A stretch of DNA of 21,284 bases from a virus. The notes below the pieces were generated by a model that was given only the letters and a program-made list of their open reading frames with translations, searched no databases and was not told the DNA's origin. How positions within the stretch are numbered: position 1 is the first letter of the stretch; every line of letters begins with the position of its first letter. Position numbers and translations under genes: made by a program. Where the stretch lies: positions 1-21,284 of the IMG/VR virus record IMGVR_UViG_2597490295_000013. One strand, written 5' to 3'. Positions 420 to 15,347 of the stretch are shown here, one piece after another.

Positions 420-448
420 AATTTTCTCCTTTTCTTATTTCTATATAT

Positions 449-477
449 ATTATATCATAAATAAAATAAAAAGTCAA
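449..477 (-). promoter_or_regulatory. sigma-A/70 promoter
   Basis: TTGACT-17bp-TATAAT with extended TG, followed by ATATATAGA. Confidence 0.85.
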
Positions 478-495
478 TAAAATTTATTGACTTTT
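468..495 (-). terminator. Intrinsic terminator whose stem contains the next -35
   Basis: AAAAGTCAATAA-ATT-TTATTGACTTTT hairpin spanning the stop of 484-726. Confidence 0.6.
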
Positions 496-726
496 ATCTT
501 TATTCTTTTCTATTAATTCTTTTAAATTTTTATTGCTTTTATTCGCAAATAAAACTAAGATGCTTGCTGAAATAAAACAATATATTACTGCAACTACAAA
601 TGTCATCGGCGGACTCATAACAATAATTCCCGCAAATACGAATCCAAATAAAATACTTATATCTAATGAGTTCCTACCAAAAAACGATAACATAAATGCT
701 GTCATAATCCATACATAAAAAAACAT
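484..726 (-). CDS. Small membrane protein
   Basis: AAGGAGG RBS; 2-3 hydrophobic segments and a basic tail. Confidence 0.8.
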   Translation of the reverse strand: MFFYVWIMTAFMLSFFGRNSLDISILFGFVFAGIIVMSPPMTFVVAVIYCFISASILVLFANKSNKNLKELIEKNKDKSQ

Positions 727-741
727 AAATCCTCCTTATTA

Positions 742-871
742 AAATTGAGTCACTACCTAACAGCACTCCTATGGAATTACCCAATGGTCTGTCGACTATC
801 TTGCGATTTAAGTCTCAAGGTTTCTGGTTTGTAATGAGCTACTATAACCCTTTTTTCACTTTTCTCAATTT
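742..871 (-). ncRNA. Candidate structured RNA / cis element
   Basis: GC-enriched intergenic stretch with no ORF start; closing AAATTGAG/CTCAATTT stem, ATC-GCAA-GAT hairpin, GACAG/CTGTT and TCATTAC/GTAGTGA pairings. Confidence 0.45.
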
Positions 872-895
872 ATAAACTATTTAGTAAATTAAAAT

Positions 896-1120
896 TTATC
901 TTAATTCCTCTTTAGTAACTGTTATACAATATCCTTCAAAATGCCATTGAATACAATACTCATTTTCATTATCAGTTATAACTTTAAAATCATCATTATA
1001 ACGTACGCCTTCACTCGCTAATCTCAATGCATATAAAATTGCATCTTCAACATTTTTAAATATAAATACTTGATTATCTGTATTTCTCCAATTACAATTT
1101 ACCGCATATACATATTCCAT
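896..1120 (-). CDS. Hypothetical phage protein
   Basis: AGGAGGT RBS, TAA stop. Confidence 0.8.
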   Translation of the reverse strand: MEYVYAVNCNWRNTDNQVFIFKNVEDAILYALRLASEGVRYNDDFKVITDNENEYCIQWHFEGYCITVTKEELR

Positions 1121-1135
1121 AAAGTTACCTCCTTA

Positions 1136-1408
1136 TTAATAAACAATAATTTCATAACCTTTTTCAAGAATTTCTTCTTTTGTTTCTTCTGCAATTTCCC
1201 AATAAATAAAAAATTCTAATTCTTCATTATATTCTTCCGCTTGTTCGATGCTTCCTGTTTCTATGGCGTTCTCATAGCATAAACTATTGCCTAAAATAGC
1301 TATTTCCATTTCAGAAATATTGCCATTCATTAAATAATAATATGTTTCATCACTTTCGCAATAATTTGTAGAAACTTCAATTTTTATTATTTTAGTCATT
1401 GCAATCAT
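1136..1408 (-). CDS. Acidic hypothetical protein
   Basis: GGAGG RBS; very Glu-rich; start may be the ATG at 1399. Confidence 0.8.
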   Translation of the reverse strand: MIAMTKIIKIEVSTNYCESDETYYYLMNGNISEMEIAILGNSLCYENAIETGSIEQAEEYNEELEFFIYWEIAEETKEEILEKGYEIIVY

Positions 1409-1418
1409 CCTCCAAGTT

Positions 1419-2168
1419 TTACTTTCTTTTTATAATCATTTTTACATGAGTTTTTTCTTTTAATTTAATATTGAAATCTTTTTTAACAAATCTCTTTAAA
1501 AATCTAGGAGTATAATGTTTAATATAAATGATTTCATAATTTTCTGGTAATTCCGCAATTAATTGTTCTAGTGTTAATGGTAAATAATTTTCTTTTACTT
1601 CTCGATTCCAATTTTTAAGGTATCTATACTTTAATAAATAATGAATAAGATTTCTATTTAAAGCAATATCTCCCCAATTATCTTGAAAATCTTCTAAATT
1701 CCCATTATTTTTTTCTTTTACTTTCTTTACATCTTTTAAATTACTTGTTTTAATTTGTGAATCACTTATCATCATATCACGAATAACAATATACTTAGTA
1801 TCAATTTTTGTAAATACTTCATTCCAAAATTCCGTTGGATCCGCATAAGAGTATATTTCATGAATAATTGATGATAGAATCAAAGCACTATTTTTCGTTT
1901 TCTCTTGGCTTAATAAATCTAAATCATCTGTAAATGTAATATCACTATTTTGTTTTGCTCTTTCTAACATTTCCTTTGATATGTCATACCCTACATATTT
2001 ACATTCAGGAAGTAAAGATTGGATAAATTTTAATAGTGCTCCATCTGCACATCCATAGTCTAAGAAACTATCAGCTTTTATTTTTCTTAAAAAAAATGAT
2101 TTTTCATGTAAAGATTTTTTCATGCTATCTGTATAACTATTAATATCATTTATTTTAATTTTTGTCAT
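1419..2168 (-). CDS. Class I SAM-dependent methyltransferase-like protein
   Basis: Motif I FLDYGCADG, GYDISKEML, LSSIIHE; own promoter. Confidence 0.8.
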   Translation of the reverse strand: MTKIKINDINSYTDSMKKSLHEKSFFLRKIKADSFLDYGCADGALLKFIQSLLPECKYVGYDISKEMLERAKQNSDITFTDDLDLLSQEKTKNSALILSSIIHEIYSYADPTEFWNEVFTKIDTKYIVIRDMMISDSQIKTSNLKDVKKVKEKNNGNLEDFQDNWGDIALNRNLIHYLLKYRYLKNWNREVKENYLPLTLEQLIAELPENYEIIYIKHYTPRFLKRFVKKDFNIKLKEKTHVKMIIKRK

Positions 2169-2213
2169 TTCAACACTTCCTTTATTTTTTTACTTCTTTT
2201 AACTTCTATATAT

Positions 2214-2242
2214 ATTATATCATATATATAAAGAAAAGTCAA
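2214..2242 (-). promoter_or_regulatory. sigma-A/70 promoter
   Basis: TTGACT-17-TATAAT with extended TG. Confidence 0.85.
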
Positions 2243-2260
2243 GAGAATTTTCCCTTGACT
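2231..2260 (-). terminator. Intrinsic terminator containing the next -35
   Basis: AGTCAAGGG-AAAATT-CTCTTGACT-TTTCTTT downstream of the stop at 2272. Confidence 0.65.
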
Positions 2261-2271
2261 TATAGTAATTT

Positions 2272-2553
2272 TTATAACATTGCTATTTTTTCTTCTTCAT
2301 ATTTAATTTTAGATTCATTCGTTTTTATTAAAAAATTAATAATATTATTTCTTTCTTTTAAATCACCAGTAGATAATATTTTTGTATTACCTGCAACTGC
2401 ATTACCTGATACTGAAATTTGTAATTTACTAAACTTATCATCTTTTAAATTTTCTAAAACTTTATTATCTCTTTTAAGAAGTTCAATTTTATCTGTTGAA
2501 AGTTCATATTTTGTAATTTTATATTTTAAATCATCATATTCTTCATAAGTCAT
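2272..2553 (-). CDS. Hypothetical protein
   Basis: AGGAG RBS, tightly packed in operon. Confidence 0.8.
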   Translation of the reverse strand: MTYEEYDDLKYKITKYELSTDKIELLKRDNKVLENLKDDKFSKLQISVSGNAVAGNTKILSTGDLKERNNIINFLIKTNESKIKYEEEKIAML

Positions 2554-2555
2554 AG

Positions 2556-3071
2556 TTAATCTCCTTGTTTATTTAATATTTGAATTAATCGGTCTATAAC
2601 CGCATCATTTAATCCACCATCTATATTCGTAGAACTAGTAGCAGCAATCCTGTCTGTATAGCTTATTGTTCCCATAATTTCAATAACTTCGTCATCAACC
2701 ACTGCAAAAGATTCGATATTAGAATGATTATCAAGCCAAAATTGTATTTCTTCTCCTCTTGTCATAAGTTCATTAAATTCATAAGGAGTTTGATCTATAA
2801 CTTCACCTTTAAAATTTTTTAATTCTAATATATCTATACAAAATTTTAATCCAAACATTCGCCAAGAGGAAGAAATAACAACTTTGCATCCTGTTTCTTT
2901 TATTACTTTATTAAGATTCTCTACTAATTTAGGGTCTATATCTAATGCGAAGTTTTGTATTTGACTAAGAGATACATTCTGACTTCGTAGTTTTATTCTT
3001 AACATTTCTGCTTCGCATAATCTTATTGACGTATTTAAGACTCCATCAAAATCTAAAAATAAAATTTTCAT
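2556..3071 (-). CDS. HAD-superfamily hydrolase (Swiss-Army-Knife RNA-repair HAD type)
   Basis: FLDFDGVLN, VVISSSWR, RGEEIQFWL, FAVVDD motifs. Confidence 0.85.
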   Translation of the reverse strand: MKILFLDFDGVLNTSIRLCEAEMLRIKLRSQNVSLSQIQNFALDIDPKLVENLNKVIKETGCKVVISSSWRMFGLKFCIDILELKNFKGEVIDQTPYEFNELMTRGEEIQFWLDNHSNIESFAVVDDEVIEIMGTISYTDRIAATSSTNIDGGLNDAVIDRLIQILNKQGD

Positions 3072-3080
3072 ATTAATCTC

Positions 3081-3476
3081 CTATTTTCTAAATTTATTTA
3101 AATTTACTGAACCAGTACTCATTTTTTCTCTTTCTTCTTCTAATTTTACATATAATTCCATCATTTCATAAATAATTCCGTATAATGGTTCATGTGCTTT
3201 AACATCGAAAGTAACTCTGATAATAATTCTTGGTGTATCAATATTCTCTACATCAAGCATTCCTGTTTTAGTTTTCTTAATAACTTTAAATTCATAAGAG
3301 TCTCCAAAAGGAACTAAAATAGGTAATTTTAATACATCACCGATTTTCACACTTTTGTTCATATCTCCTTTCGTCATTGCAATTGCAGTGCTAAGCATTT
3401 TTTCAGTTTTCTTTAAAGTATTATTAAGTGTACCTAATTTTTCTTCCAATTCTTTGAATTTTTCACTTTTAGCCAT
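3081..3476 (-). CDS. Hypothetical protein
   Basis: GGAGG RBS; N-terminal coiled-coil-like region. Confidence 0.8.
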   Translation of the reverse strand: MAKSEKFKELEEKLGTLNNTLKKTEKMLSTAIAMTKGDMNKSVKIGDVLKLPILVPFGDSYEFKVIKKTKTGMLDVENIDTPRIIIRVTFDVKAHEPLYGIIYEMMELYVKLEEEREKMSTGSVNLNKFRK

Positions 3477-3485
3477 AATTCCTCC

Positions 3486-3713
3486 CTAATCCCATTCATT
3501 TAATTTTTTTCTTACATCATATTGAGTTTTTAAAAATAATAAACTCATTTCTAATTTATGATTTTTTAATTCAAGTTTTTCAACAAATAAATTAACATGA
3601 TGGTTTCTATTTATGCTTTCAAGAATTTCAATTTTTTCATTGTTAAGTTTAATTTCATTTCTTATTTTTTTAATTCTTTGTAAAAATTTTCTTTTTTCTT
3701 TATTAATGAACAT
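3486..3713 (-). CDS. Hypothetical coiled-coil protein (start revised to MFINKE)
   Basis: AGGAGG RBS precedes the ATG at 3713. Confidence 0.75.
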   Translation of the reverse strand: MFINKEKRKFLQRIKKIRNEIKLNNEKIEILESINRNHHVNLFVEKLELKNHKLEMSLLFLKTQYDVRKKLNEWD

Positions 3714-3714
3714 A

Positions 3715-3903
3715 TTATCCTCCTTTAACAAGATTAAAATGCTCTTTAAAGAAAACAGAGCCAGTTTCACAAATTACTTCTATATAACCAAATGGATCAG
3801 TTCTAAGTACTAAATCATTTTCAATTTCAAGTACAGTCCCAACAGAAATATACTCATGTATAAAGATGCCTGTTTCACATACTTTAGTGCAAATAGCTTT
3901 CAT
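3715..3903 (-). CDS. Hypothetical protein
   Basis: GAGG RBS, TAA stop. Confidence 0.75.
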   Translation of the reverse strand: MKAICTKVCETGIFIHEYISVGTVLEIENDLVLRTDPFGYIEVICETGSVFFKEHFNLVKGG

Positions 3904-3919
3904 TCTATTTCCTCCTATA

Positions 3920-4138
3920 CTAGTATTTTATTTTAGTAATGCTCTCTATTTCTATTTCTATTTCTATAATTCCTATTTCTTTTAATTTTTGTATTACTTC
4001 TTTTTCATCTATTGCATAAATAAGAAATTCTCTACCATTTACTAAAAAGACTTTATACTCATATCTTTTTCCTCTATTAATAGGTCTTCGTTTAATATGT
4101 TTCCTTAATTTCATTCTTCATTTTCTTTTACGCATCAT
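3920..4138 (-). CDS. Basic hypothetical protein, probably starting MMRKRK[TGA=W]RMKLRK
   Basis: The RBS-like GGAAGTG precedes the ATG at 4138, in frame with the track ORF via TGA at 4118-4120. Confidence 0.6.
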
Positions 4139-4147
4139 TTTCACTTC

Positions 4148-4297
4148 CTAAAGTGTATTGTCTTGTGATAGTAAAGCAATTATAACCACTCCTAATATTA
4201 ATATAATTAGTACACCAATAAAACTATCCATTAAAGCAATCATAAATACTATAAGTATAGATATTGTAAATATTAATAATCCTTTTATTAATTTCAT
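4148..4297 (-). CDS. Small two-TM membrane protein (start MKLIKG)
   Basis: AAAGGA RBS; hydrophobic. Confidence 0.7.
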   Translation of the reverse strand: MKLIKGLLIFTISILIVFMIALMDSFIGVLIILILGVVIIALLSQDNTL

Positions 4298-4310
4298 AAT
4301 AAATTCCTTT

Positions 4311-4448
4311 CTATTTTGTAAATAATGAATTAACAAATACACTTAATTTAAGAAACGTATATGAAAATCCAGCAACGAATAAATATAATCCAGTAATTGC
4401 CATACTACCTAATGTAATAAAAGTTAATACTATTCCTAAAAATTCCAT
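4311..4448 (-). CDS. Small membrane protein (45 aa, MEFLGIVLTF...), not in ORF track
   Basis: AGGAGGT RBS, TAG stop. Confidence 0.7.
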   Translation of the reverse strand: MEFLGIVLTFITLGSMAITGLYLFVAGFSYTFLKLSVFVNSLFTK

Positions 4449-4457
4449 AAATACCTC

Positions 4458-4637
4458 CTATTGTTTAATTATAACATTAATAATCATTAATTCTTGATTT
4501 AAAATATAAAATCTAGTTCTCATCTTTTGTTTAACTTCTTCATCTTTTGAAAAATCAATTCCTATTTTTATATTGCTTAAAATTCTTTCAATGAATGTTT
4601 TTCTTTTAAATAATTTATCTTTAAATTTTTTATGCAT
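4458..4637 (-). CDS. Hypothetical protein
   Basis: GGAGG RBS before the ATG at 4637. Confidence 0.7.
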   Translation of the reverse strand: MHKKFKDKLFKRKTFIERILSNIKIGIDFSKDEEVKQKMRTRFYILNQELMIINVIIKQ

Positions 4638-4649
4638 AATCAACCTCCA

Positions 4650-4811
4650 TTAATAAGTTGGAATATCCGACTTAAAACCGCATTTTAAACATTTTTGAGT
4701 CATATGAATTTGTACATATTTAATTCTTTTATCTTTAATTATCTTAATTGATAACTCTGCATATCTATTTCCAGTATAATACATTGGATTACCACACTTT
4801 GGACAATTCAT
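4650..4811 (-). CDS. Zinc-ribbon protein (53 aa, CPKC...CLKC), not in ORF track
   Basis: Two CxxC pairs; GAGG RBS. Confidence 0.75.
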   Translation of the reverse strand: MNCPKCGNPMYYTGNRYAELSIKIIKDKRIKYVQIHMTQKCLKCGFKSDIPTY

Positions 4812-4968
4812 TAGCGTGTTCCTCTCTTTCTATTTGTTCAATTACTGCTGTTAATTTATTAATTTGAATACCTATTTCTACTTTAACTCTATTACTTTTA
4901 CATTTACTTTTGCTATCTTTTAAATGTATCCTCATAATTTTTAGTTCATGTAGAATATTAAGTTTCAT
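4789..4968 (-). CDS. Hypothetical protein (59 aa, MKLNILHELK...)
   Basis: AGGAG RBS, TAATG overlap with upstream gene. Confidence 0.65.
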   Translation of the reverse strand: MKLNILHELKIMRIHLKDSKSKCKSNRVKVEIGIQINKLTAVIEQIEREEHANELSKVW

Positions 4969-5165
4969 TAATTTCTCTCCTTTTTATTTTCTATATCCTT
5001 TATTAATTTTATTTGCATAATTGTTGTATTGCATAATGATTCCCAATAACAATATTTGCATTTATTATTTGAATCTCTTTTATCATCTAAATATTTTCTA
5101 TTTTGTATACAAAATTCTGCTTGAGCCAATTTGAATATCTCACTTGCCTTAACTATTTTAGACAT
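4968..5165 (-). CDS. Small Cys-rich protein
   Basis: GAGGAG RBS; TTG start; C...CKYC...C. Confidence 0.7.
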   Translation of the reverse strand: MSKIVKASEIFKLAQAEFCIQNRKYLDDKRDSNNKCKYCYWESLCNTTIMQIKLIKDIENKKERN

Positions 5166-5219
5166 TCTTTTCTCCTCTTGGAAATTTTATTAAATTACTT
5201 TTTCCTTATTCCTATATAT

Positions 5220-5248
5220 ATTATATCATATTTATATAAGTTTGTCAA
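5220..5248 (-). promoter_or_regulatory. sigma-A/70 promoter
   Basis: TTGACA-17-TATAAT with extended TG. Confidence 0.9.
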
Positions 5249-5268
5249 TATGAATTATAAAAATTTTA

Positions 5269-5802
5269 TTATAATTTTCTATCTAATAATAATAATGCAA
5301 TTTTATTAGCTCTTGCTTCTAAAGGCAAATTCATGTATGTAGAACAAACTCTTTCATAAGACATTTCATTCTTTTCATAAAGAGTATTAATCATTTCTTC
5401 TATTTTTGTTTGAATTATATCATTCTTTTCATACTTGATTATGTTATTAATAAAATCTACCCAATGACCTAACTCATGTAATAACATAAATTCTAAAAGA
5501 TTGCATTTATTTTTAGCTTTATTTATTAATTTTATATCTTCTTTTATAACATTAGGTTCATTTTCTAATAAGATACTTAATTGAGCAGGTGAAATTATAA
5601 TTTTAGCAGAATATCTATTTAACCCTTTTTTCTTGCGTATATATATTTGAATATGAGAATATGAACATCCATCATAATCAATAAATATTCTAACATTCTT
5701 AAATAATTTATAATATTTCATTTTTAATTTAATACCAAGAATTCTTACTTTTATTATACTCCCAAATTTTATATAATAATCTTTCTTAAATTGTCTATTC
5801 AT
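5269..5802 (-). CDS. HExxH zinc metallopeptidase-like protein (ImmA/IrrE-like motif), paralog 1
   Basis: LLHELGHWVD...LEARANKIA; paralog of 20028-20561. Confidence 0.7.
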   Translation of the reverse strand: MNRQFKKDYYIKFGSIIKVRILGIKLKMKYYKLFKNVRIFIDYDGCSYSHIQIYIRKKKGLNRYSAKIIISPAQLSILLENEPNVIKEDIKLINKAKNKCNLLEFMLLHELGHWVDFINNIIKYEKNDIIQTKIEEMINTLYEKNEMSYERVCSTYMNLPLEARANKIALLLLDRKL

Positions 5803-5828
5803 ATTTCCTCCTTAACCTTTATATAACT

Positions 5829-5857
5829 ATTATACCACATTTATTTAGAACTGTCAA
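5829..5857 (-). promoter_or_regulatory. sigma-A/70 promoter (divergent pair)
   Basis: TTGACA-17-TATAAT with extended TG. Confidence 0.9.
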
Positions 5858-5932
5858 TACAAAGTGCAAACTATTTATTCCCAATTTCTGGAGAAAAATA
5901 CACCGACCAAAATTTTAGGTAAAAAATACTAT

Positions 5933-5961
5933 TTGACAAATTTATATAATTGTGATATAAT
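5933..5961 (+). promoter_or_regulatory. sigma-A/70 promoter (divergent pair)
   Basis: TTGACA-17-TATAAT with extended TG. Confidence 0.9.
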
Positions 5962-6015
5962 ATATATAGAAATAAAAGAATGCAAGAAAAAGAAAAATTT
6001 GGAAGGAAGTGAAGT

Positions 6016-6192
6016 ATGATAGAAAAATTTACATTTCAGCAAGCATTAAGTCAATGTACTGTATGTAAAATTAGTTTTAAGAACTATTATGGAGAGAAAT
6101 TAATTAACAGGAATAATAATATATTAATAATACCAAATCCTAATAAACCTAATAGTCCTGTGTTAATTGATACTAACTGGTATAAAATATAA
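6016..6192 (+). CDS. Hypothetical protein (58 aa, MIEKFTFQQALSQCTVC...)
   Basis: GGAAGTG RBS; first gene after the promoter; not in ORF track. Confidence 0.7.
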   Translation: MIEKFTFQQALSQCTVCKISFKNYYGEKLINRNNNILIIPNPNKPNSPVLIDTNWYKI

Positions 6193-6206
6193 ATAAGGAG
6201 GATATT

Positions 6207-6419
6207 ATGAAATTTATTGATGTAGAAGGAATTGAAGCAATGTTTATAACTATGGATAAAACAGAATTAAAGAATGCACTTAATGCTATAGCAATATTAT
6301 TAAAAAGAAATTTAGAAATAATGAAAGATGACTCTTCTGTTGAAATGTTGTTAGAATATGCAGAAACTTTCGCTGTTTATGCAATAGCACAAGATTTATA
6401 TTCTAAATTAGGACAATAA
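6207..6419 (+). CDS. Hypothetical protein
   Basis: AAGGAGG RBS. Confidence 0.8.
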   Translation: MKFIDVEGIEAMFITMDKTELKNALNAIAILLKRNLEIMKDDSSVEMLLEYAETFAVYAIAQDLYSKLGQ

Positions 6420-6420
6420 A

Positions 6421-6870
6421 ATGTTATATTTTAAGGATGAATTTAAAAAAGAATTCCCTAATATTCCTTTTAATCTAATAGATGAAGAGATGCATGATTT
6501 AATTTATATGCTTAATAAAATAGGATTAAAAACTCAGTTCTGTTGCCAAGGACACCAGAAGACAGAACCTAGTGTAATGTTCGCTGAAGAAGTGACAGAT
6601 GCACAAATAAAAGAATTTATGTGTCATCTCCCTAATATAGTTAAAATTGGTTCATTCTATAAATGAACAAGAGATTTAGGTGCGGAGATGATGGAATTGT
6701 TCGACCCCAAGAGAAAGGATACGATACTTAAGAATTGGTGTTGGCATCTCCCCGGTCCTAGTTTAACTAATAAAGCTACAATTATGGACATTCAAAAAAT
6801 AGTTAAAACAATTTCTGAAATATATGGGTTAGAAAGAGGAGTGGAGTATGAAAAAGAAAGTACTAGATAA
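6421..6870 (+). CDS. Hypothetical protein (149 aa) fused across an in-frame TGA; N-terminal ID...LN..GLKT.FCCQGH motif (weakly TYW3-like)
   Basis: Track ORFs 6421-6666 and 6688-6870 are in the same frame, separated only by TGA 6664-6666 (FYK-W-TRD). Confidence 0.65.
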
Positions 6871-7135
6871 TGAAATAAATATGAATAAAGTTAATTTATT
6901 TTTAGTTCATGTATATTATATTGTAGATAAAGATAGAGGAAAGCTTGAAGTAGTTGCGGTCAGAAATGAATTAGATGTTAAAAAATTAATTGCCGCATTA
7001 AGACAAAAGAAAAGAACTGTAATATTAGAATCGCGTATTAAAACTATGTATGATGTAAATGATATTACTATAGAATATATAATTCCACAATTAGAAGTTG
7101 AAGAAATAAAGATTATTGCAGTAATAGAAGAATAG
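6848..7135 (+). CDS. Hypothetical protein
   Basis: GAGGAG RBS, TAG stop. Confidence 0.75.
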   Translation: MKKKVLDNEINMNKVNLFLVHVYYIVDKDRGKLEVVAVRNELDVKKLIAALRQKKRTVILESRIKTMYDVNDITIEYIIPQLEVEEIKIIAVIEE

Positions 7136-7148
7136 GAGAAAATATATT

Positions 7149-7475
7149 ATGAAACTAAAAGGTATTGAATTAATAGGAGAATATACTATAGTATATTTTA
7201 CTGAAAGCTTTAGAATATTTGATGAAAATGATAATGAAATTTATTCTGAAAATTTAAATAGATTTTGGATAAAAAGAAAATTTGATGAATATAATAATAA
7301 AATTTATTTTGAAAATTCAGATGGTTATTGGGTTAAAAGAGAATTTGATAAAAATAATAATCAAATTTATTATGAAAATTCAAAAGGTATTATTGAAAAT
7401 AATAGACTAATTAAAGAATTAACAGTTGAACAAATTGAAAAACTATTAGGATGCGCTATTAAAATAATAAAATAG
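7149..7475 (+). CDS. 21-aa repeat protein, paralog 2 (3 units)
   Basis: N-terminus MKLKGIELIGEYTI nearly identical to 18-419. Confidence 0.85.
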   Translation: MKLKGIELIGEYTIVYFTESFRIFDENDNEIYSENLNRFWIKRKFDEYNNKIYFENSDGYWVKREFDKNNNQIYYENSKGIIENNRLIKELTVEQIEKLLGCAIKIIK

Positions 7476-7483
7476 GAGATATA

Positions 7484-7783
7484 ATGGATAATAAAACTGA
7501 ATACATCATTTGTGCAGCAATATGGGTACAAGATGGTAATAAATATGTGCATCAGCCAAAAAATGTAGAATCAGGATTTGTAGTTGCTGGATTTAGACAT
7601 TGTAATTGTTTTGTTACTCTTTTTATGCTTTATCCAAATAGAGAATATTTAAATATTTATGTTGATGGATTTTTAACAAGTCATGGAAGATTTGTAAAAA
7701 GAGATAAAGCTGCAGAAATTGCTTACCAATGTTGTCAAACGAATGAACGGAAAAAAATGTTATGTTCAGAAGATATTTATTAA
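7484..7783 (+). CDS. Conserved-looking phage hypothetical protein
   Basis: IICAAIW, GFRH, GFLTSHGRFV.R..A..IA, SEDIY motifs. Confidence 0.8.
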   Translation: MDNKTEYIICAAIWVQDGNKYVHQPKNVESGFVVAGFRHCNCFVTLFMLYPNREYLNIYVDGFLTSHGRFVKRDKAAEIAYQCCQTNERKKMLCSEDIY

Positions 7784-7969
7784 GCTGTGGTATTAAAAGT
7801 TGGGACAAAAACTATTAAAATGTGGTAAACAAATTCTGTTATAACCGTATTAAGCTATTAAAAAATATTATTGAATTTTATTGGAAAATAACTAGAAGTG
7901 ATTGAAAGAAGAACCATGTTCATAAAAAGAAAAATTCAATCACCACAAAAGATTATAAGGAGAAATATT

Positions 7970-8179
7970 ATGTGTAATGAAGATTGTAAAAATTGTAAAG
8001 AAGAATCTTTACCAGTTGAAAGATTAGAACCTAATAAAAAACATGTTATTGGAGTAGGAGTAGATACAGAATTAATTTCTGTTGGTGCTGAAGCACATAT
8101 TGCAATAGGAAATTTAATATTGGTAATTATTGTTGAAAATGAAAACGCAATTAGTTTAGAAATCATAACAGGAGATTAG
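7970..8179 (+). CDS. Hypothetical protein (start MCNEDCKNC)
   Basis: AAGGAG RBS before the ATG at 7970. Confidence 0.7.
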   Translation: MCNEDCKNCKEESLPVERLEPNKKHVIGVGVDTELISVGAEAHIAIGNLILVIIVENENAISLEIITGD

Positions 8180-8187
8180 GAGTTAAA

Positions 8188-8337
8188 ATGACTAGAAAAT
8201 CAAAAGCAAAAGTTATAGAAATGACTATGCCATTTAGAATTAATGAAAAGATAGTTATACCTAAAGATTTTATAGAAATAGATAGAGTGAATGAAGATGG
8301 ATGGATAATTGTAAGAGTAAAAAGGAAAGGAATGTAA
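8188..8337 (+). CDS. Hypothetical protein (49 aa)
   Basis: AGGAG RBS, TAA stop. Confidence 0.65.
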   Translation: MTRKSKAKVIEMTMPFRINEKIVIPKDFIEIDRVNEDGWIIVRVKRKGM

Positions 8338-8338
8338 T

Positions 8339-8503
8339 ATGTTAAAAAAATCATCAATAAAACTTACTGTAATATTAAGTGTTATATTTCTTGTTTATCT
8401 TATTGCTGCAACAGAAAGTTTATTAGCGGGAATTTCAATTTTTGGATTTTTCGCTTTGTTGATTATATCAATTGTACATGATATGCGGAAAATATATAAA
8501 TAA
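8339..8503 (+). CDS. Small two-TM membrane protein (54 aa)
   Basis: AAAGGA RBS; hydrophobic. Confidence 0.65.
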   Translation: MLKKSSIKLTVILSVIFLVYLIAATESLLAGISIFGFFALLIISIVHDMRKIYK

Positions 8504-8514
8504 GGAGAATAGAT

Positions 8515-8655
8515 ATGGGATTTTTAATAAATATAGGAATAACAATGATAATATTCTTAGCAATTTGGTTAATACCATATTATTCATGAAATATTACAGA
8601 AAAAAATTTAAAAAAAATAAAAAAAAAAGATTTAAAAAAAAATAAAAAAAAATAA
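8515..8655 (+). CDS. Small membrane peptide with in-frame TGA (8587-8589) and Lys-rich tail
   Basis: AAGGAG RBS; paralog of 8783-8887, with similarity continuing past the TGA. Confidence 0.55.
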
Positions 8656-8682
8656 AAATAAATTATAAAGGAGGAATGTATT

Positions 8683-8763
8683 ATGTTTATGGGAATATTA
8701 GTATTAATAGTAATAGTTGTAGTAGTTTTTGTTATAAGTTATCATTATCAAGATTATCTTTAA
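8683..8763 (+). CDS. Single-TM micropeptide (26 aa)
   Basis: AAGGAGG RBS. Confidence 0.55.
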   Translation: MFMGILVLIVIVVVVFVISYHYQDYL

Positions 8764-8782
8764 AATATAAAGGAGATATAAG

Positions 8783-8887
8783 ATGGAATTTTTAATAAGT
8801 ATGGGAATAGTAATAATAGTATTATTAGTAGCATGGTCAGTACCATATGGATTGTATCTAATTATAGAACATTTTTTTGAAAAATAA
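8783..8887 (+). CDS. Single-TM micropeptide (34 aa)
   Basis: AAGGAG RBS. Confidence 0.6.
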   Translation: MEFLISMGIVIIVLLVAWSVPYGLYLIIEHFFEK

Positions 8888-8924
8888 AAAATAAAATTTA
8901 TTTAAATTGTATTGGAGGTTAGTT

Positions 8925-9110
8925 ATGAAAGTTTTACAAAAAGGAAGTGAAAGAACATTTAAAAAAGAATGTCATAATTGTTATAGTCTTTTAGAATATA
9001 ATATGGAAGATGCGAAAATATTAGAAAGAGATTTTAATGGGATAATAAATGTAAGTTATTATATAACATGTCCTATATGTAAAGCAATTATAGACGTTAG
9101 CAGAAAATAA
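8925..9110 (+). CDS. Zinc-ribbon protein (start MKVLQKG)
   Basis: CHNC...CPIC; GGAGGT RBS. Confidence 0.8.
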   Translation: MKVLQKGSERTFKKECHNCYSLLEYNMEDAKILERDFNGIINVSYYITCPICKAIIDVSRK

Positions 9111-9139
9111 TTTTATTTAAACCGCATTAGGAGGAAATT

Positions 9140-9283
9140 ATGAAAAATAAATATGTATTTAAGTATAGTTTGATTGGAGATTATAATTTTGATGTAACTG
9201 CACCGAAAGGATATATTTATTATGGATATGAGATAGATGAAAGTTCTCAAATAATTATACATATATTTAAACTAATTGAGTAA
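9140..9283 (+). CDS. Hypothetical protein (47 aa)
   Basis: AGGAGG RBS. Confidence 0.65.
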   Translation: MKNKYVFKYSLIGDYNFDVTAPKGYIYYGYEIDESSQIIIHIFKLIE

Positions 9284-9312
9284 ATACATTTAAACCGCAT
9301 TGGAGGTGTAAT

Positions 9313-9597
9313 ATGTTATTTAAAAAAGAAATTTTAACTGAAATAGAATGTCAAATTCTTGATAAAGATTGTAATGGGTTTACCTTAATAGATGAAGGTG
9401 AATGGGTTCAAAGCGGAAAATATCAGTATAAAACTATAATATTTAAATTTGAAGGAAAATATTATATGTTACAAGATACAAGAAGCGGATCTCCTTTTAC
9501 TGACTGGTATTATGATTCTGATAATTGGAGTGATGAAGTTAATTGCATGGAAGTATATCCGAAAGAAGTTACAATAACTGTATGGGAAGCTGTTTAA
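9313..9597 (+). CDS. Phage hypothetical protein
   Basis: GGAGGTG RBS; acidic/aromatic; RSGSPFTDW motif. Confidence 0.8.
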   Translation: MLFKKEILTEIECQILDKDCNGFTLIDEGEWVQSGKYQYKTIIFKFEGKYYMLQDTRSGSPFTDWYYDSDNWSDEVNCMEVYPKEVTITVWEAV

Positions 9598-9630
9598 TAG
9601 GTAAAAGTATTAATTATTTGGAGGTTAATT

Positions 9631-9732
9631 ATGGAAATTTTAATAGGAATATTAATAGGAACGTTAGGATTAATGGTATTATTTTTAATAGGATGGAAAA
9701 TAGGAGATATTTTATTTAATAAGTACGTTTAA
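9631..9732 (+). CDS. Single-TM micropeptide (33 aa)
   Basis: GGAGGT RBS. Confidence 0.6.
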   Translation: MEILIGILIGTLGLMVLFLIGWKIGDILFNKYV

Positions 9733-9751
9733 ACCGCATTAGGAGGAAGTT

Positions 9752-9835
9752 ATGGATATTATAGGAATGTTAATAGTAATAATAATATGGTCTTTAATAG
9801 GATATTTAATAGGAAAGAATGTATCTAATAAGTAA
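9752..9835 (+). CDS. Single-TM micropeptide (27 aa)
   Basis: AGGAGG RBS. Confidence 0.55.
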   Translation: MDIIGMLIVIIIWSLIGYLIGKNVSNK

Positions 9836-9899
9836 ATTCAGTTAAACCGCACTTAAAGTAGGTATTAAATCAATTAGAACCGCGGTAGGAGGTGTAAAT

Positions 9900-10076
9900 A
9901 TGAATTATAAATCTAAAAAAAATAAAAAACGCAGAAGAAATTATAGACATATTAAATTAGAATGCACTTCTCATAAAGGAGGAAAAAGAAAAATTGATGC
10001 TATAAGTTTTTCTAAGAATCGTAGGAAGTCATGTTCAACAAGAAATTATAAGAAAACAGGATTAAACGTAATATAA
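9900..10076 (+). CDS. Highly basic small protein (58 aa)
   Basis: AGGAGGTG RBS; K/R-rich. Confidence 0.6.
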   Translation: MNYKSKKNKKRRRNYRHIKLECTSHKGGKRKIDAISFSKNRRKSCSTRNYKKTGLNVI

Positions 10077-11140
10077 TAAATAAATTTAAACTGAAAAAAA
10101 AAAGTAGGTATTAAATTTATTAAAATTGTATCTATATTCTAATCTACGTTTTCTTACTCTTGGTCAAAGTTATATAATTCAGCGGTATTAAAGTAATACG
10201 TAAATTCAGTTAAACCGCACTATGTTATATATAAACTAACATATAAAGACTAGTAAGAAAACGTAAGGAAGGATTAGTAAGAAAAAGTAAGTAAGAAAGG
10301 GGTATTAAAAAAGAAATAGAATATATGAGTTATGTAAATAAAAAGTAGAAAAGAGAAGGGTTGTATTAAATTATATAATCAAAGGGGTAAAAGAACCTTT
10401 TATGTTAAAATAAAGGAATTGAAGAGGTAAAAGAATCCCGCTCATCCCATGTACTTAAGTATCCCTATTTATCGTACACTTACTTTTGACCTAGTGGTAT
10501 TGAATTTTACTTAAATTTATCCAGAAGGAGATATTTTTATACTACACCGTATACGAAAGCAATATTATTTTATTTACTCCACGAGATTATTATTCTCGAA
10601 AAGTAATAAAAAAGAGTAGGTACGAGCGTTAGCGAGTACCTATAACGAATAGCGAGTGTAACGAGCAATTCACTATACATAGAGGGGATTTGTATATAAC
10701 GTAATGCGGTGCTAAAGCACCTTATTACTAATTAGTAAGAACGTATTGTTACGTAATTAGGTGCTAACGCACCTTATTACTATAGGATTTATTTACTCTA
10801 CGAGATGACCAAAGTGGAAAGTAAATGAATAGGGGGGGGGGTTTCTTTCTCATTATATATGTACTTTTAAATATATGAGTTAAACATTTCTGCCCAAAAG
10901 ATTAGAACAAACTATATAATAATAAAATTTAAGAATTAGAGGGAGAAATGCGTTACCGCATTTCTCCTATATATTGATTTTATAGTAATTAGATAATTCA
11001 ATAAGGCTACGAGATTAATGAAGTGGAAAGTAATAAGTATGTAATATGTATTATTATTTCCTCGTATTTTAAACTTAATTTCTATCAAAAGTAACCACAT
11101 ATTTATTAAATATTTCTGCCCAGAAGTTTAGAGCATATTA
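10077..11140. other. ~1 kb non-coding region with hairpins, direct repeats and a G10 tract: candidate origin or genome terminus
   Basis: No credible ORF; hairpins 10617-10642, 10647-10671, 10701-10728, 10753-10780, 10942-10967; G-run 10832-10841. Confidence 0.5.
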
Positions 11141-11142
11141 TA

Positions 11143-11171
11143 TTGACAATTTATTATAATTATGTTATAAT
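11143..11171 (+). promoter_or_regulatory. sigma-A/70 promoter
   Basis: TTGACA-17-TATAAT with extended TG. Confidence 0.9.
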
Positions 11172-11200
11172 ATATATAGAAATTAAAGAAAGGATAAATT

Positions 11201-11644
11201 ATGACAAATTGGGAACCTATATATGGATATAATGATTTATATATGATAAGTAAAGATGGACAGTTTAAAAAGGGAAATGAAGTTTTAGAAACTTTCCTAA
11301 GAGAAGATGATAAGGAATATATTATATTAATTAGTAAAACTGGCGAAAAGTGTATTTATTTAGTATCTACCTTATTAAAGAAATATTTTCCGGAAGACAA
11401 AGAAAAGTGAAAACAAATAGAAGAATTCAATAATAAATACTATATAAGTAGCAATGGAAGAGTTCTGTATAAAGATGAATGAGGAAAAGAAAATTTAATA
11501 ACAATACTTTATAGAAATGGTTGCGCATATGTTCGTTTATATGTAAAAAGAGAAAAAAGATACACATATTATATTCATTCATTAATGGATAAGTATTTTC
11601 CAGAAATAGAATATAAAGATGAAGGGTTTAGAGATACTTTTTAA
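11201..11644 (+). CDS. Tandem NUMOD4-domain protein (147 aa) read through two TGA codons
   Basis: Unit 1 WEPIYGYNDLYMISKDGQF...KYFP; unit 2 [TGA]KQIEEFNNKYYISSNGRV...KYFP; TGAs at 11408 and 11480, TAA at 11642. Confidence 0.75.
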
Positions 11645-12368: not shown

Positions 12369-12451
12369 TAAAAAAAAGAGATAAAAGACTTCCAAGTTCT
12401 ACCCGATGTTGTAGGGGTCGAGTATACCTGTACTTGATTTATCTCTTTTAT
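12369..12451 (-). terminator. Long 3'-UTR hairpin ending in a U-tract
   Basis: AAAAGAGATAAA/TTTATCTCTTTT outer stem with nested CAAGT/ACTTG and TACTCGA/TCGGGTA stems. Confidence 0.55.
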
Positions 12452-12456
12452 ATAAC

Positions 12457-12768
12457 TTACTCAACGTCAACTGCTGGAGCATTTTCTTTGTCTTCTGTAT
12501 TATGACAAGGACAGTCGCAGTCATCTGGACAGTCTTCGTTACAATCGCACTCCGCGTCGTCCTCAATTACAATTTCTAATCTTTTTGATTTAACAATTAC
12601 TTTAATAACAATGTCTTGGTCTTTTCCTCTTAGTAACAACTCTCCACTAGCAAGATCTACTAGAATTTCATCACTTGTAGCTACAAATCCGCTTGCAAGT
12701 CTTGCTTTAACATCTTCTCTAGCAAGTTTAGCTAATTCTTTTGCACTTACTTCTTTAATTACTTCCAT
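12457..12768 (-). CDS. Hypothetical protein with Cys/Asp-rich tail; paralog of 16848-17078
   Basis: AGGAG RBS; RE.VK.RLA.GF..T.DE.L.D shared. Confidence 0.8.
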   Translation of the reverse strand: MEVIKEVSAKELAKLAREDVKARLASGFVATSDEILVDLASGELLLRGKDQDIVIKVIVKSKRLEIVIEDDAECDCNEDCPDDCDCPCHNTEDKENAPAVDVE

Positions 12769-12784
12769 AACCCATCTCTCCTTT

Positions 12785-12955
12785 TTATCCTTTAGTATAC
12801 CTTATTTTACCTCTATCTACTTCTAAATAATCAATATTTATTTCAAGTTTTAAATATCTTCCACGAGTACTGCCATTATCGCTTCCATAAAAAACGACAT
12901 AGCTACCTTTAAAAAACTGTTCTATGTTTACGCTACTTATAAAAAATGTTAACAT
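12785..12955 (-). CDS. Hypothetical protein (56 aa, MLTFFISSVN...)
   Basis: AAGGAGG RBS directly after the structured element; not in ORF track. Confidence 0.65.
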   Translation of the reverse strand: MLTFFISSVNIEQFFKGSYVVFYGSDNGSTRGRYLKLEINIDYLEVDRGKIRYTKG

Positions 12956-12969
12956 ATTTTATCCTCCTT

Positions 12970-13174
12970 ATTAATTCCTTAAAAATGTTTGAAGTTTACT
13001 GGCTGGGTTGTCTCCAGAGACATGATTTTTAATTAAGATTATTGCCTAGGTTAACTTAATTGCGGTACATGTGCTTCGATCAAATGAACTTAGCGCGCAC
13101 TATGTCATTTATGTTTCTTACCAAGGTTCCTACTTTTTCGCGGAACGAGCTTCAAACATTTTTAAGGAATTAAT
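12970..13174 (-). ncRNA. Candidate structured RNA closed by a perfect 25-bp stem
   Basis: Inverted repeat 12970-12994 / 13150-13174 with internal hairpins, just downstream of the promoter at 13198-13226. Confidence 0.6.
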
Positions 13175-13197
13175 TTTCTTTTCCTTTAACTATCTAT

Positions 13198-13226
13198 ATT
13201 ATATCATATCCTTACTTAAAAGTCAA
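13198..13226 (-). promoter_or_regulatory. sigma-A/70 promoter
   Basis: TTGACT-17-TATAAT with extended TG. Confidence 0.85.
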
Positions 13227-13245
13227 TAGTTTTTTTAATATTTTT

Positions 13246-13455
13246 TTAATTTTCTTGCAAAGGTCTGATATTACAAGTGTCACCAGTATCTACTGTAACT
13301 CCATATTCAGCAATCCTTTCTACATACTCCATGAATCTAACATGAGCCTTATGAAGATTCTGTGCTTCGATAATACGAGTTGCTCTACCTTTCGATTTTG
13401 TTTCTGCGTCTGTCCAGTTAAATGAAACTATATAAAATCCTGGCATAATTTTCAT
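13246..13455 (-). CDS. Hypothetical protein
   Basis: AAGGAG RBS, own promoter. Confidence 0.8.
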   Translation of the reverse strand: MKIMPGFYIVSFNWTDAETKSKGRATRIIEAQNLHKAHVRFMEYVERIAEYGVTVDTGDTCNIRPLQEN

Positions 13456-13484
13456 ATCTTTTCTCCTTTCCTTTATCTATATAT

Positions 13485-13513
13485 ATTATATCATATCTAC
13501 ACTTGAATGTCAA
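13485..13513 (-). promoter_or_regulatory. sigma-A/70 promoter
   Basis: TTGACA-17-TATAAT with extended TG. Confidence 0.9.
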
Positions 13514-13527
13514 GTAAATTTTATTAA

Positions 13528-13634
13528 TTTTTACTGGACATATGCTCTTTACGGCTAGGTGATGCATCGAACAGAATTTTACTGGACATGAGCGCTTTAC
13601 AGCTAGGTAGTGCACTGGGCAGAATTTACTGGAA
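13528..13634. repeat. Imperfect tandem repeat, 47-48 bp unit, ~2.2 copies
   Basis: TTTACTGGA at 13530, 13578, 13625; CTTTAC.GCTAGGT shared by two units. Confidence 0.8.
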
Positions 13635-13822
13635 AATTATGGAAAAAGGTCGGTGTATTTGCGGTGTATATGCGGTGTATAATTTCCAGGTTGCCTTCGG
13701 CGTTCGGTGTATAAGTGTCAAGGGTGCGGTGTATAAAAGGGACTTTGGTTTGTCAAGAGTGCGGTGTAGGAGGTCGGTGTATTGAGAAGTGCGGTGTATT
13801 GAAGATAAAAAAAAGAAGAGAA

Positions 13823-14113
13823 TTAATCTTCTTCAACTATTAATGTACTAGTTACTGTTTTAAAAGAAACAATTTCAGAATCTTCTATTAGAAATGCAAT
13901 ATTTTTAAGAGTAAAAAAATCTGTTTCAATATCTCCATTTTCATAAAAAAGTACAAAACTCTCACTATTTGTGCATTTTATTACAAAACAGTTAGGCAAA
14001 CAAGAATCATTTATTAAAATTAAACTTTTTTCATTTTCTAATTCTGTATAAATTTCATTAGTTAATTTTTCACTTGGTAATTCTTCTATTTTGACTTTAA
14101 AATTCATATCCAT
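13823..14113 (-). CDS. Acidic hypothetical protein
   Basis: AGAAAGGTGGTG RBS; terminator over the stop (~13807-13833). Confidence 0.8.
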   Translation of the reverse strand: MDMNFKVKIEELPSEKLTNEIYTELENEKSLILINDSCLPNCFVIKCTNSESFVLFYENGDIETDFFTLKNIAFLIEDSEIVSFKTVTSTLIVEED

Positions 14114-14136
14114 AACTTCACCACCTTTCTACTTAT

Positions 14137-14177
14137 AGTATACCATATGTATTCTTATATTACTATCATGCGGTGTA
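14137..14177 (-). promoter_or_regulatory. Box-type promoter
   Basis: TACACCGC-27bp-TATACT with extended TG. Confidence 0.8.
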
Positions 14178-14278
14178 TAATAAATTTTAGCTGAATGTAT
14201 TATGTACACCGGATAAAGCGGTGTAGTATGTCAAGTTTGCGGTGTATATAAAAGAAAAGAGATTTTACTCTCTTTTAC

Positions 14279-14488
14279 TTATCTGGCATTAACTGGTGTT
14301 AATTCTTCCGCCATTCCTAATTTTACCAATACTAAGTATTCTTTATTGCTAAGGTAAATATAAGTAAATTTATCTTCATCTCCATGTATTGCTACTTCTA
14401 TTTTTAATTCTTCAACTTCTTTTAAACTCATAACTGCTCTACTTGTTTCTCCTAAACGTGTATATGCCACTACTACTATATCAGTCAT
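14279..14488 (-). CDS. Hypothetical protein
   Basis: AGAAAGGTGGTG RBS; terminator ~14251-14276. Confidence 0.8.
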   Translation of the reverse strand: MTDIVVVAYTRLGETSRAVMSLKEVEELKIEVAIHGDEDKFTYIYLSNKEYLVLVKLGMAEELTPVNAR

Positions 14489-14514
14489 TTTCTACACCAC
14501 CTTTCTATACATTA

Positions 14515-14555
14515 AGTATAACATATATAAAACAAATCTTCAACGATGCGGTGTA
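14515..14555 (-). promoter_or_regulatory. Box-type promoter
   Basis: TACACCGC-27bp-TATACT with extended TG. Confidence 0.8.
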
Positions 14556-14580
14556 TTCTTATTCTAAAAAAAAAGAGGAA

Positions 14581-14811
14581 TTAATTCCCCTCTATTTGGC
14601 AAATTTCACATCTGTATTCTTTCTGTTCTAACATAATAATTTGTATGTTTAAAAATTCTAATCCCTTAATGAATCCCGCTATTTTATCCCCTATATGGTC
14701 ATGATAATAATCACCTTCAAGTAAAATTTTTCCAGTTGCAACATCAGTTAATTTCATTGAATAATCGCAAGTTTCACAAAAAGATATTTGTAATACTATT
14801 ATTTTATTCAT
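14581..14811 (-). CDS. Hypothetical protein with two CxxC motifs
   Basis: CETC...GDYYHD...CEIC. Confidence 0.8.
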   Translation of the reverse strand: MNKIIVLQISFCETCDYSMKLTDVATGKILLEGDYYHDHIGDKIAGFIKGLEFLNIQIIMLEQKEYRCEICQIEGN

Positions 14812-14815
14812 AAAA

Positions 14816-14947
14816 TCACTTCTTTCTTGATTGTAAAATAATGATATTAAGCATTAATTGTAATAAAGTTGAAATAACAAGACCTGCCCATGTTAAATCA
14901 CATGCTCCAAATAAAACAAATAAATTATAAAAAAATAAAAATAACAT
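14816..14947 (-). CDS. Small membrane protein; ends at TGA 14816 or, if TGA=W, at a TAA 4 codons later
   Basis: AGAAAGGTGGTG RBS; hydrophobic 43 aa. Confidence 0.6.
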   Translation of the reverse strand: MLFLFFYNLFVLFGACDLTWAGLVISTLLQLMLNIIILQSRKK

Positions 14948-14972
14948 AACTTTTCACCACCTTTCTATAACT

Positions 14973-15013
14973 AGTATACCATATACACCAAGAGAAAGAT
15001 ACAATGCGGTGTA
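14973..15013 (-). promoter_or_regulatory. Box-type promoter
   Basis: TACACCGC-27bp-TATACT with extended TG. Confidence 0.8.
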
Positions 15014-15116
15014 TATAAATTTTTGGCTTTATTAATACACTGACCTTAGTACACCGCACTATCCGGTGTATAGTCTCTTTCTACATCGCAAATACACCGG
15101 AAAAAAAGAAAGGCAA

Positions 15117-15347
15117 TTACTTGCCTTTTTTTGTAATAATTTCTAATAATTTCCTTTTGCCATCTTCTGCCAATGCTTCCTTAAATTGGTTATCGAAATA
15201 ACCTTTCCATGATTGGAAAAAAATGTCACCTCTAGTCCTTGCTTGTTTTCTGGAATAATCTGCCAAATTTGTTTCAACAAGCGTTTTCCTTAATCTTCCT
15301 TTTAAGGAATTAACTAACTGCTCTTTCTTTTTGTAAAGTTTTGCCAT
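15117..15347 (-). CDS. Basic hypothetical protein (start MAKLYKK)
   Basis: GGGAGTG RBS; terminator over the stop. Confidence 0.75.
   Translation of the reverse strand: MAKLYKKKEQLVNSLKGRLRKTLVETNLADYSRKQARTRGDIFFQSWKGYFDNQFKEALAEDGKRKLLEIITKKGK

Follow-up and report, generated by a model that had tools for sequence, protein, structure and literature searches.

Does the virus behind this DNA read TGA as a stop, or does it read it as tryptophan (Trp, W)? The question is raised by the first 21,284 nt of the IMG/VR virus record IMGVR_UViG_2597490295_000013, a stretch that is here called the window and that comprises bases 1-21284 of a contig, C53, of 127,832 bp and 28.5% G+C, which has been grouped in a 78-contig, 2.1-Mb bacterial genome bin. 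An original prediction made from the letters of the window proposed that TGA is decoded as Trp, and the six TGA codons on which it drew (4118, 6664, 8587, 11408, 11480 and 14816) are all exactly where it had placed them. C53 is a phage contig, and it is very probable that the phage decodes TGA as Trp through a tRNA of its own with the anticodon UCA, tRNA(UCA), which lies on the same contig about 94 kb past the end of the window.

The phage hallmarks found on C53 by Pfam matches are a tape-measure protein, a tail protein, two Amidase_3 proteins and an SLT domain. Matches to proteins of DNA metabolism include DnaE, a RecJ-like nuclease, DnaB, ribonucleotide reductase (RNR), ThyA, DHFR and dUTPase, with further matches to gyrase A and B, DNA and RNA ligases and several homing endonucleases. 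C53 showed no terminal repeat, and the contig is not claimed to be complete.

TGA codons across the contig and in homologues

The effect of TGA on the contig as a whole can be seen from the coding cover, that is the share of the contig under open reading frames (ORFs) of at least 150 aa. This is 0.499 with the standard code (code 11), 0.653 with TGA as a sense codon (code 4) and 0.523 with TAG as sense; in the 15 other contigs of more than 30 kb the change with TGA as sense is at most 0.022. Gene prediction with a codon log-odds model, for which 43 long ORFs from beyond the window served as the training set, gives 171 genes on C53 with 114 in-frame TGA and 261 TGG codons, TGA thus making up 30% of the two (114/375), and about 95 of the TGA codons sit inside genes. 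The genes that carry TGA number 61 of the 171 and include DnaE and RNR (4 TGA each), ThyA (3), the tape measure, the terminase and a 559-aa tail protein with 8. As a true stop TGA is little used and is nearly absent: gene ends are TAA in 123 cases and TAG in 48, and 11 TGA codons within 12 codons of a gene end are possible TGA stops, so that common use of TGA as a stop, named at the outset as an observation that would count against recoding, is not seen. If C53 were annotated with the standard code, at least 61 of its about 171 genes would be broken, and reading it under code 4 restores DnaE, RNR, ThyA, terminase, tape measure and others.

The alignment of homologues at TGA positions, also suggested in the original prediction as a check, points to Trp. 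Against Bacillus phage SPbeta, W is found at 7 of 21 TGA positions (I 3, Y 2, F 2, gaps 2, others 1 each; binomial p 6e-9), compared with 18 of 39 TGG positions. A metagenomic comparison used 80 loci found with a DnaE alignment, a TGA column being testable where at least 10 homologues were aligned; W has the majority at 8 of the 16 testable TGA columns versus 15 of 4148 other columns (binomial p 4e-16), and at 15 of 23 TGG columns. Within DnaE, W is present in 71/71 homologues at TGA 424, in 67/71 at TGA 464 and in 41/60 at TGA 1102. At two of the three TGAs of ThyA the thymidylate synthases in PDB have W, the third TGA being aligned one residue off a W, and for RNase HI the PDB homologue has W at one of two. 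The residues found at TGA follow the pattern of a Trp codon, which neither Gly nor selenocysteine fits.

Within the window three codons, 6664, 11408 and 11480, are secure Trp codons. The TGA at 6664 joins ORF 6421-6666 with 6688-6870, two ORFs in the same frame as was first proposed, and together they give a YoqC-like protein. Of 80 homologues aligned at 6664, 77 have W (Y 2, R 1), W is also the residue in YoqC of SPbeta, and a paralogue of the YoqC-like protein elsewhere on C53 has TGA at the same column. The other two codons fall in a single gene with two NUMOD4-like units, NUMOD4 being a DNA-binding module of the homing-endonuclease type. The Pfam NUMOD4 match spans both TGAs (residues 68-114 = model 1-49, E 1.2e-11), there is no alternative start downstream of them in the 147-codon ORF, and the sole homologue found of this protein (P0005, 59% identity) has W at both positions. 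The original prediction had placed 11408 at a conserved Trp of the module, and this agrees with the Trp that we take to stand at model position 3, a placing for which the TGG-coded W4 of unit 1 and P0005 also speak. Searches with this protein otherwise gave no match, whether among longer proteins with unit 2, in PDB at E <=1, or in a metagenome scan with the NUMOD4 alignment, in which the search patterns perhaps back-translate W only as TGG. Given the composition of the DNA, the chance that the frames at the secure sites would lack TAA and TAG is p = 0.0014 (78 codons) and 0.0035 (67 codons).

A phage tRNA(UCA), its proposed action and the rival explanations

ARAGORN finds 24 tRNA genes on C53, all on the minus strand between 102,150 and 115,175, and one further gene found only by Rfam brings the array to 25. 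The tRNA(UCA) scores 36.6 bits against the general tRNA model of Rfam (gathering score 29). It carries A1-U72, G5-C68 and G73, which we take to be Trp identity elements, and A1-U72/G73 recur in the phage and bin genes for tRNA-Trp. The phage has both CCA and UCA tRNAs of Trp type, and the two have 14 of 16 bases in common from the anticodon loop to the variable region. The label of SeC that ARAGORN gives to tRNA(UCA) comes from its anticodon. It is contradicted by the length of 74 nt, the 4-nt variable region and the general tRNA being the best member of the Rfam clan; a tRNA-Sec has a long extra arm, an extended acceptor stem and about 90 nt or more. Neither a release factor nor a tryptophanyl-tRNA synthetase (TrpRS) was found on C53, where searches with prfB and the class-Ib synthetase family matched other contigs only; of the genes that the original prediction had suggested looking for, a tRNA-Trp(TCA) or a release factor, it is only the first that the phage carries.

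Within the host, tRNA(UCA) would be charged by the host TrpRS and would compete with host release factor 2 (RF2) at UGA. Translation would begin with the standard-code genes, and full-length replication, structural, lysis and homing-endonuclease proteins would be made only after the suppressor tRNA builds up. The NUMOD4 gene would use the host polymerase, since a perfect sigma-70 consensus lies upstream, yet the suppressor tRNA would be needed for a full-length product. Of the three causes originally suggested, which are only partly right, regulated read-through of selected genes comes nearest to this in spirit, given a phage suppressor tRNA and recoded blocks that alternate with others, although the cause itself lay beyond the window.

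A number of observations weigh against this reading. The tRNA(UCA) is the weakest of 21 Rfam tRNA matches, its acceptor stem is interrupted by two U-U mismatches, and its overall identity is 47/74 to the phage tRNA(CCA) and 34/74 to the bin tRNA-Trp, so that over its whole sequence it shows no special likeness to tRNA-Trp over other tRNAs. Of the 16 testable TGA columns, 8 are without a W majority (Y 3, F 2, and G, S and I 1 each), DnaE TGA 607 meets W in 0 of 70 homologues, and W stands at only 1 of 16 TGA positions when the homologues of the bin itself are aligned by tblastn, although these, at 20-33% identity, are too distant to help. The share of TGA is 0.40 in the replication block versus 0.33 in the structural one, which fits a simple division into early and late genes less well than do the Agate genomes discussed below. 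Lastly, we infer Trp decoding from alignments alone, and the temporal switch is a predicted step.

A host that itself uses code 4 was among the causes first considered; the phage would then share the code of its host, an organism similar to Mycoplasma or Spiroplasma, and the bin would not be that host. This is very unlikely. The bin uses the standard code, as it has RF2 (prfB, 471.8 bits with a cut-off of 370, SPF and GGQ motifs, adjoining secA), has tRNA-Trp(CCA) as its only Trp tRNA and has TGA at the end of 136 of 1223 long ORFs (11%), and it shows no gain in cover under code 4. A host other than the bin is conceivable in that the link between the two rests on binning, a CRISPR array or spacer match not having been found (a crude scan gave no array in the bin), and the bin is itself related to Mollicutes, its best RF2 relatives being metagenome-assembled genomes titled Candidatus Izemoplasmatales (69% identity, with 3 of 64 collection parts scanned). 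A phage that shared such a code would hardly be expected to carry its own tRNA(UCA), to have TGA in just 30% of its Trp codons or to keep whole blocks that avoid internal TGA and have probable TGA stops. The two Amidase_3 proteins and the SLT domain imply a walled host, and the known code-4 Mollicutes are wall-less. A single 24-nt match to another contig, C72, lies in coding sequence and was rejected as a CRISPR link.

The same wall genes bear on whether the phage belongs with the bin at all. The bin, which is 92.8% complete, lacks a PBP transpeptidase, FtsW/RodA and any MurA above cut-off and has only a single Mur-ligase-like gene, and the co-binned bacterium looks wall-less; the two amidases and the transglycosylase of the phage point to a walled host. 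A bin without wall genes and a phage with wall hydrolases may therefore not belong together, which is also what gives the code-4 host some room. Among 76 other genomes of the family of the bin, no phage-type DnaE was found at E <=1e-50. That the co-binning is real, and that the host of the phage is the wall-less, standard-code, Izemoplasmatales-like bacterium of the bin, is unlikely. If it were true, a tRNA-Trp that reads UGA would be brought by the phage into a bacterium that is related to the mycoplasmas but free-living, and this would serve as a living model for how the change of UGA to Trp (code 4) began in that lineage.

It is extremely unlikely that the TGAs are true stops in genes that are split, decayed or misassembled, through pseudogene formation or sequencing errors, or that are read through at a low and leaky level without recoding. 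For three of the window codons (4118, 8587 and 14816) an ordinary stop, or a position outside any gene, is a workable reading; however, with so many genes carrying TGA, the frames are open and homologous on both sides and W is enriched at the TGA columns. Four runs of a marine-sediment sample that may be the source were assembled, and these assemblies concur at the window sites, with no variant letter and hence no TGG at any TGA, which speaks against assembly errors; no RNA data are listed among the sequencing runs of that sample. That TGA stands for another residue, whether Gly (code 25), selenocysteine or Cys, is scarcely credible, for whilst the SeC label and one TGA column with Gly commonest (share 0.32) might suggest it, the tRNA has the size, variable region and model match of a general tRNA and W leads at TGA columns, the remainder being mostly Y or F.

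Layout of the recoding and features of the window

Under the preferred reading, TGA decoded as Trp through the phage tRNA(UCA), recoding is distributed along the contig in blocks (Table 1). TGA codons were classed as upstream of a better start, as no more than 12 codons from a gene end, or as internal, and the block counts of TGA are of internal codons. Blocks that are termed TGA-free (1-5.8, 12.4-29.3 and 115-128 kb) alternate with blocks in which 26-40% of Trp codons are TGA, and the difference in internal TGA and TGG between blocks A+C+G (6 v 69) and D+E+F (82 v 175) gives a Fisher p of 1.2e-5. Block G lies immediately upstream of the tRNA(UCA), and blocks F and E lie downstream of it. As the per-run contigs end at a repeat near position 199, and one loose end is without a match among the fetched loci, blocks A and G are not claimed to be adjacent.

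Table 1. Positions of genes, tRNAs, promoter-like site and blocks. Positions are those of the window unless prefixed by C53 or given in kb; block rows list internal TGA and TGG codons.
Feature	Position	Strand	Details
Small basic-protein gene	3920..4144	-	TGA 4118-4120 lies between the ATG linked to a Shine-Dalgarno box (4138) and a second ATG (4114)
YoqC-like gene, 149 aa	6421..6870	+	TGA 6664-6666 is codon 82
Small hydrophobic-protein gene	8515..8655	+	TGA 8587-8589 is codon 25 (Trp) or the true stop of a 24-aa peptide
Sigma-70 consensus promoter-like site	11143..11171	+	TTGACA, 17 nt, TG-TATAAT; 12/12 matches; directly 5' of NUMOD4 gene; consensus match alone
Two-unit NUMOD4-like gene, 147 aa	11201..11644	+	TGA 11408-11410 (codon 70) and 11480-11482 (codon 94), one TGG; coding score 70.6
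Small membrane-protein gene	14804..14946	-	ATG 14946; TGA 14816-14818 is four codons before TAA
tRNA, anticodon CCA, Trp-like	C53:107,657-107,727	-	Rfam 46.3 bits; missed by ARAGORN; A1-U72/G73, weak anticodon stem
tRNA, anticodon UCA	C53:115102-115175	-	ARAGORN, 74 nt; first in transcription direction
Block A	1-5.8 kb	-	Small genes; TGA 1, TGG 16
Block B	5.8-12.4 kb	+	Small genes; TGA 5, TGG 14
Block C	12.4-29.3 kb	-	Small genes; TGA 1, TGG 38
Block D	29.3-73.5 kb	+	Structural and lysis; TGA 42, TGG 93
Block E	73.5-101.6 kb	-	Replication; TGA 31, TGG 56
Block F	tRNA region		tRNA array; TGA 9, TGG 26
Block G	115.3-127.8 kb	-	Gyrase and others; TGA 4, TGG 15

The original prediction had described TGA as used rarely, and had noted that most Trp codons are TGG. 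This is true of the window, where 52 predicted genes have 55 TGG and 12 TGA codons, 5 of the 12 being upstream of a better start and 1 C-terminal, and where the proportion differs from that in the rest of the contig (12 v 55 and 102 v 206, TGA v TGG; p 0.013). The rarity is an effect of sampling, as the window has few TGAs because it lies mostly in standard-code blocks; the share is 30% over the whole contig and 33-40% in the structural and replication blocks. Block A (1..5830, minus strand) has 18 small genes with the doubtful 4118 as their sole TGA and is effectively written in the standard code. The part of block C within the window (12401..21284, minus strand) has no gene with internal TGA, and there TGA can still serve as a stop; three genes of block C have between them four near-terminal TGAs, including a TGA-TAA tandem, that look like real stops. 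The three secure codons of the window all fall in two plus-strand genes of block B.

The remaining codons of the window are less clear. The TGA at 4118 lies six codons past an ATG that has a Shine-Dalgarno-like box, AGGAAGTGA, as had been noted originally, but the ATG at 4114 is a possible start under the standard code, and this TGA is ambiguous, being either a Trp codon or outside the gene. The TGA at 8587 is also ambiguous, either Trp or a stop. A likeness to the paralogue at 8783 that was thought to go on beyond it does not clearly continue, and the text past the TGA is a lysine-rich reading of an A-run, where TRF also calls an A-rich tandem repeat. At 14816, treated as ambiguous from the start, the TGA overlaps the start region of the next gene, the TAA that had been reported four codons later is present, and the TGA is probably a real stop with a back-up TAA. 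Three other TGA-bearing ORFs, at 12320-12826(+), 7858-8166(-) and 16823-17164(-), were set aside as antisense artefacts.

Upstream of the NUMOD4 gene there are 1.1 kb without an ORF (10080-11200), with repeated short words, a G10 run and the sigma-70 consensus at the end. This region, which had no Rfam match, contains two hairpins of nearly the same sequence, GGTGCTAAAGCACC and GGTGCTAACGCACC, each with TTATTACT after it.

Endonuclease genes elsewhere on the contig are also of note. In the gyrB region at C53:118195-121132, three of the four TGAs of block G are in a GIY-YIG endonuclease gene that lies between two pieces of gyrB and has no TGG, and in the region C53:32714-35347 a terminase-like gene pair surrounds an HNH/NUMOD4-like endonuclease gene, again with 3 TGA and 0 TGG. 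Both insertions are probably introns or inteins, with endonucleases written with TGA only.

Two paralogous genes of the window, 18-419 (-) and 7149-7475 (+), contain a 63-bp tandem repeat, in 3.6 and 2.9 copies respectively and in inverted orientation. The 7.2 kb between them (199-7369) form a separate 7171-nt contig in all four runs (4/4), with a depth of about 0.4-0.6x that of the neighbouring piece. This segment may be invertible or strain-variable, or the repeat may simply break the assembly.

Genes that could act upon tRNAs lie at both ends of the contig. At 1419-3071 of the window a methyltransferase (weak PHROG match 'tRNA methyltransferase') is found with a protein that has a HAD_SAK_2 'RNA repair' domain, and at the opposite end, C53:126904-127830, there is a T4 Rnl2-type RNA ligase with a metallophosphatase. 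Together with the 25 tRNA genes these four look like a putative tRNA repair kit against anticodon nucleases of the host.

Comparison with known systems

Among known phages of like size C53 can be compared with SPbeta (SPBc2, NC_001884), the genome of which is about 130 kb. DnaE of C53 is 44-46% identical to YorL of SPbeta, and 44-45% to YorL of Bacillus phages of the SPbeta type, the gene order YorF-YorG-YorH-YorI-YorJ-YorK-YorL is kept, and there are homologues of YoqC, the terminase YonF, the tape measure, YomH and YomG. The likeness has its limits, as just 16 of 174 C53 ORFs searched (at least 60 aa) match SPbeta at E <=1e-5, SPbeta uses the standard code, and C53 differs in having a 25-gene tRNA array. 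Unlike in the temperate SPbeta, no integrase, recombinase or lysogeny gene was found by Pfam among the 113 C53 ORFs of at least 100 aa, on a contig that may be incomplete. No close relative was found in scans of IMG/VR with DnaE, the NUMOD4 protein and a Trp-free YorF-like protein, which required near-exact 8-residue words and are weak evidence.

The metagenomic relatives, with DnaE 40-52% identical to that of C53, differ in their codes. Among the 46 loci with related DnaE of at least 12 kb, cover increases with TGA as sense in L146 (+0.24, 127.7 kb) and L171 (+0.12); more loci gain with TAG as sense, such as L149 (+0.42), L131 (+0.41) and L121 (+0.35), the gain being 0.34-0.42 in L121, L131, L147 and L149 (126-200 kb), and most gain with neither. 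It appears that this DnaE clade has members of three codes, TGA-recoded, TAG-recoded and standard.

Code 4 of the Mycoplasmatales and Entomoplasmatales involves the same codon, amino acid and anticodon (UGA, Trp, UCA). In those bacteria the entire cell is recoded and RF2 has been lost, whereas in C53 the change would be borne by a phage tRNA, is partial over the genome and would act against the RF2 of the host.

The closest parallels are with recoded phages. Borges et al. (bioRxiv 10.1101/2021.08.26.457843) describe TGA-to-Trp and TAG-to-Gln recoded phages of standard-code hosts, with suppressor tRNAs in 35% of the code-4 genomes, with the recoded codon lost as a stop and with early regions in the standard code. 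By size, code and a recoded intron endonuclease C53 can be likened to their Agate lineage, as far as its published description goes. Agate genomes are of about 127 kb (C53 about 128 kb), have TGA at Trp positions, a phage suppressor tRNA and TGA nearly absent as a stop, and in C53 as well standard-code and recoded blocks alternate and an early gene is interrupted by a homing-endonuclease gene written with TGA only, here the GIY-YIG gene that parts gyrB. The NUMOD4 gene, with its promoter consensus and in-frame TGA, would match the Agate intron endonuclease of that description. C53 also differs from Agate: as described, the replication genes of Agate are in the standard code, whilst the replication block of C53 is the most recoded (TGA share 0.40), and C53 is from a marine sediment metagenome, not from a gut.

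The Jade phages of the same preprint are TGA-recoded and have a code-change operon of TrpRS, RF1 and tRNA (bioRxiv 10.1101/2021.08.26.457843). C53 resembles them in having the suppressor tRNA in a standard-code region upstream of recoded genes, and differs in having neither TrpRS nor a release factor. For sediments, a virome paper on cold seeps predicts alternative codes in 16 viruses, among which opal recoding is rare (3 recoding events).

C53 is an ordinary case of a TGA-to-Trp recoding of phages that has already been documented, and what is known of how such phages work is unchanged by it. The points in which it differs from the described cases are its source in sediment, its SPbeta-like backbone and the extent of recoding in its replication block, which matches that of the late genes. 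It adds to the TGA-recoded phages, so far mainly from guts, an example derived from sediment and with an SPbeta-like replication module, and its layout is unusually clear, with the suppressor tRNA at the head of the array, behind TGA-free genes, and the recoded replication and structural blocks after it.

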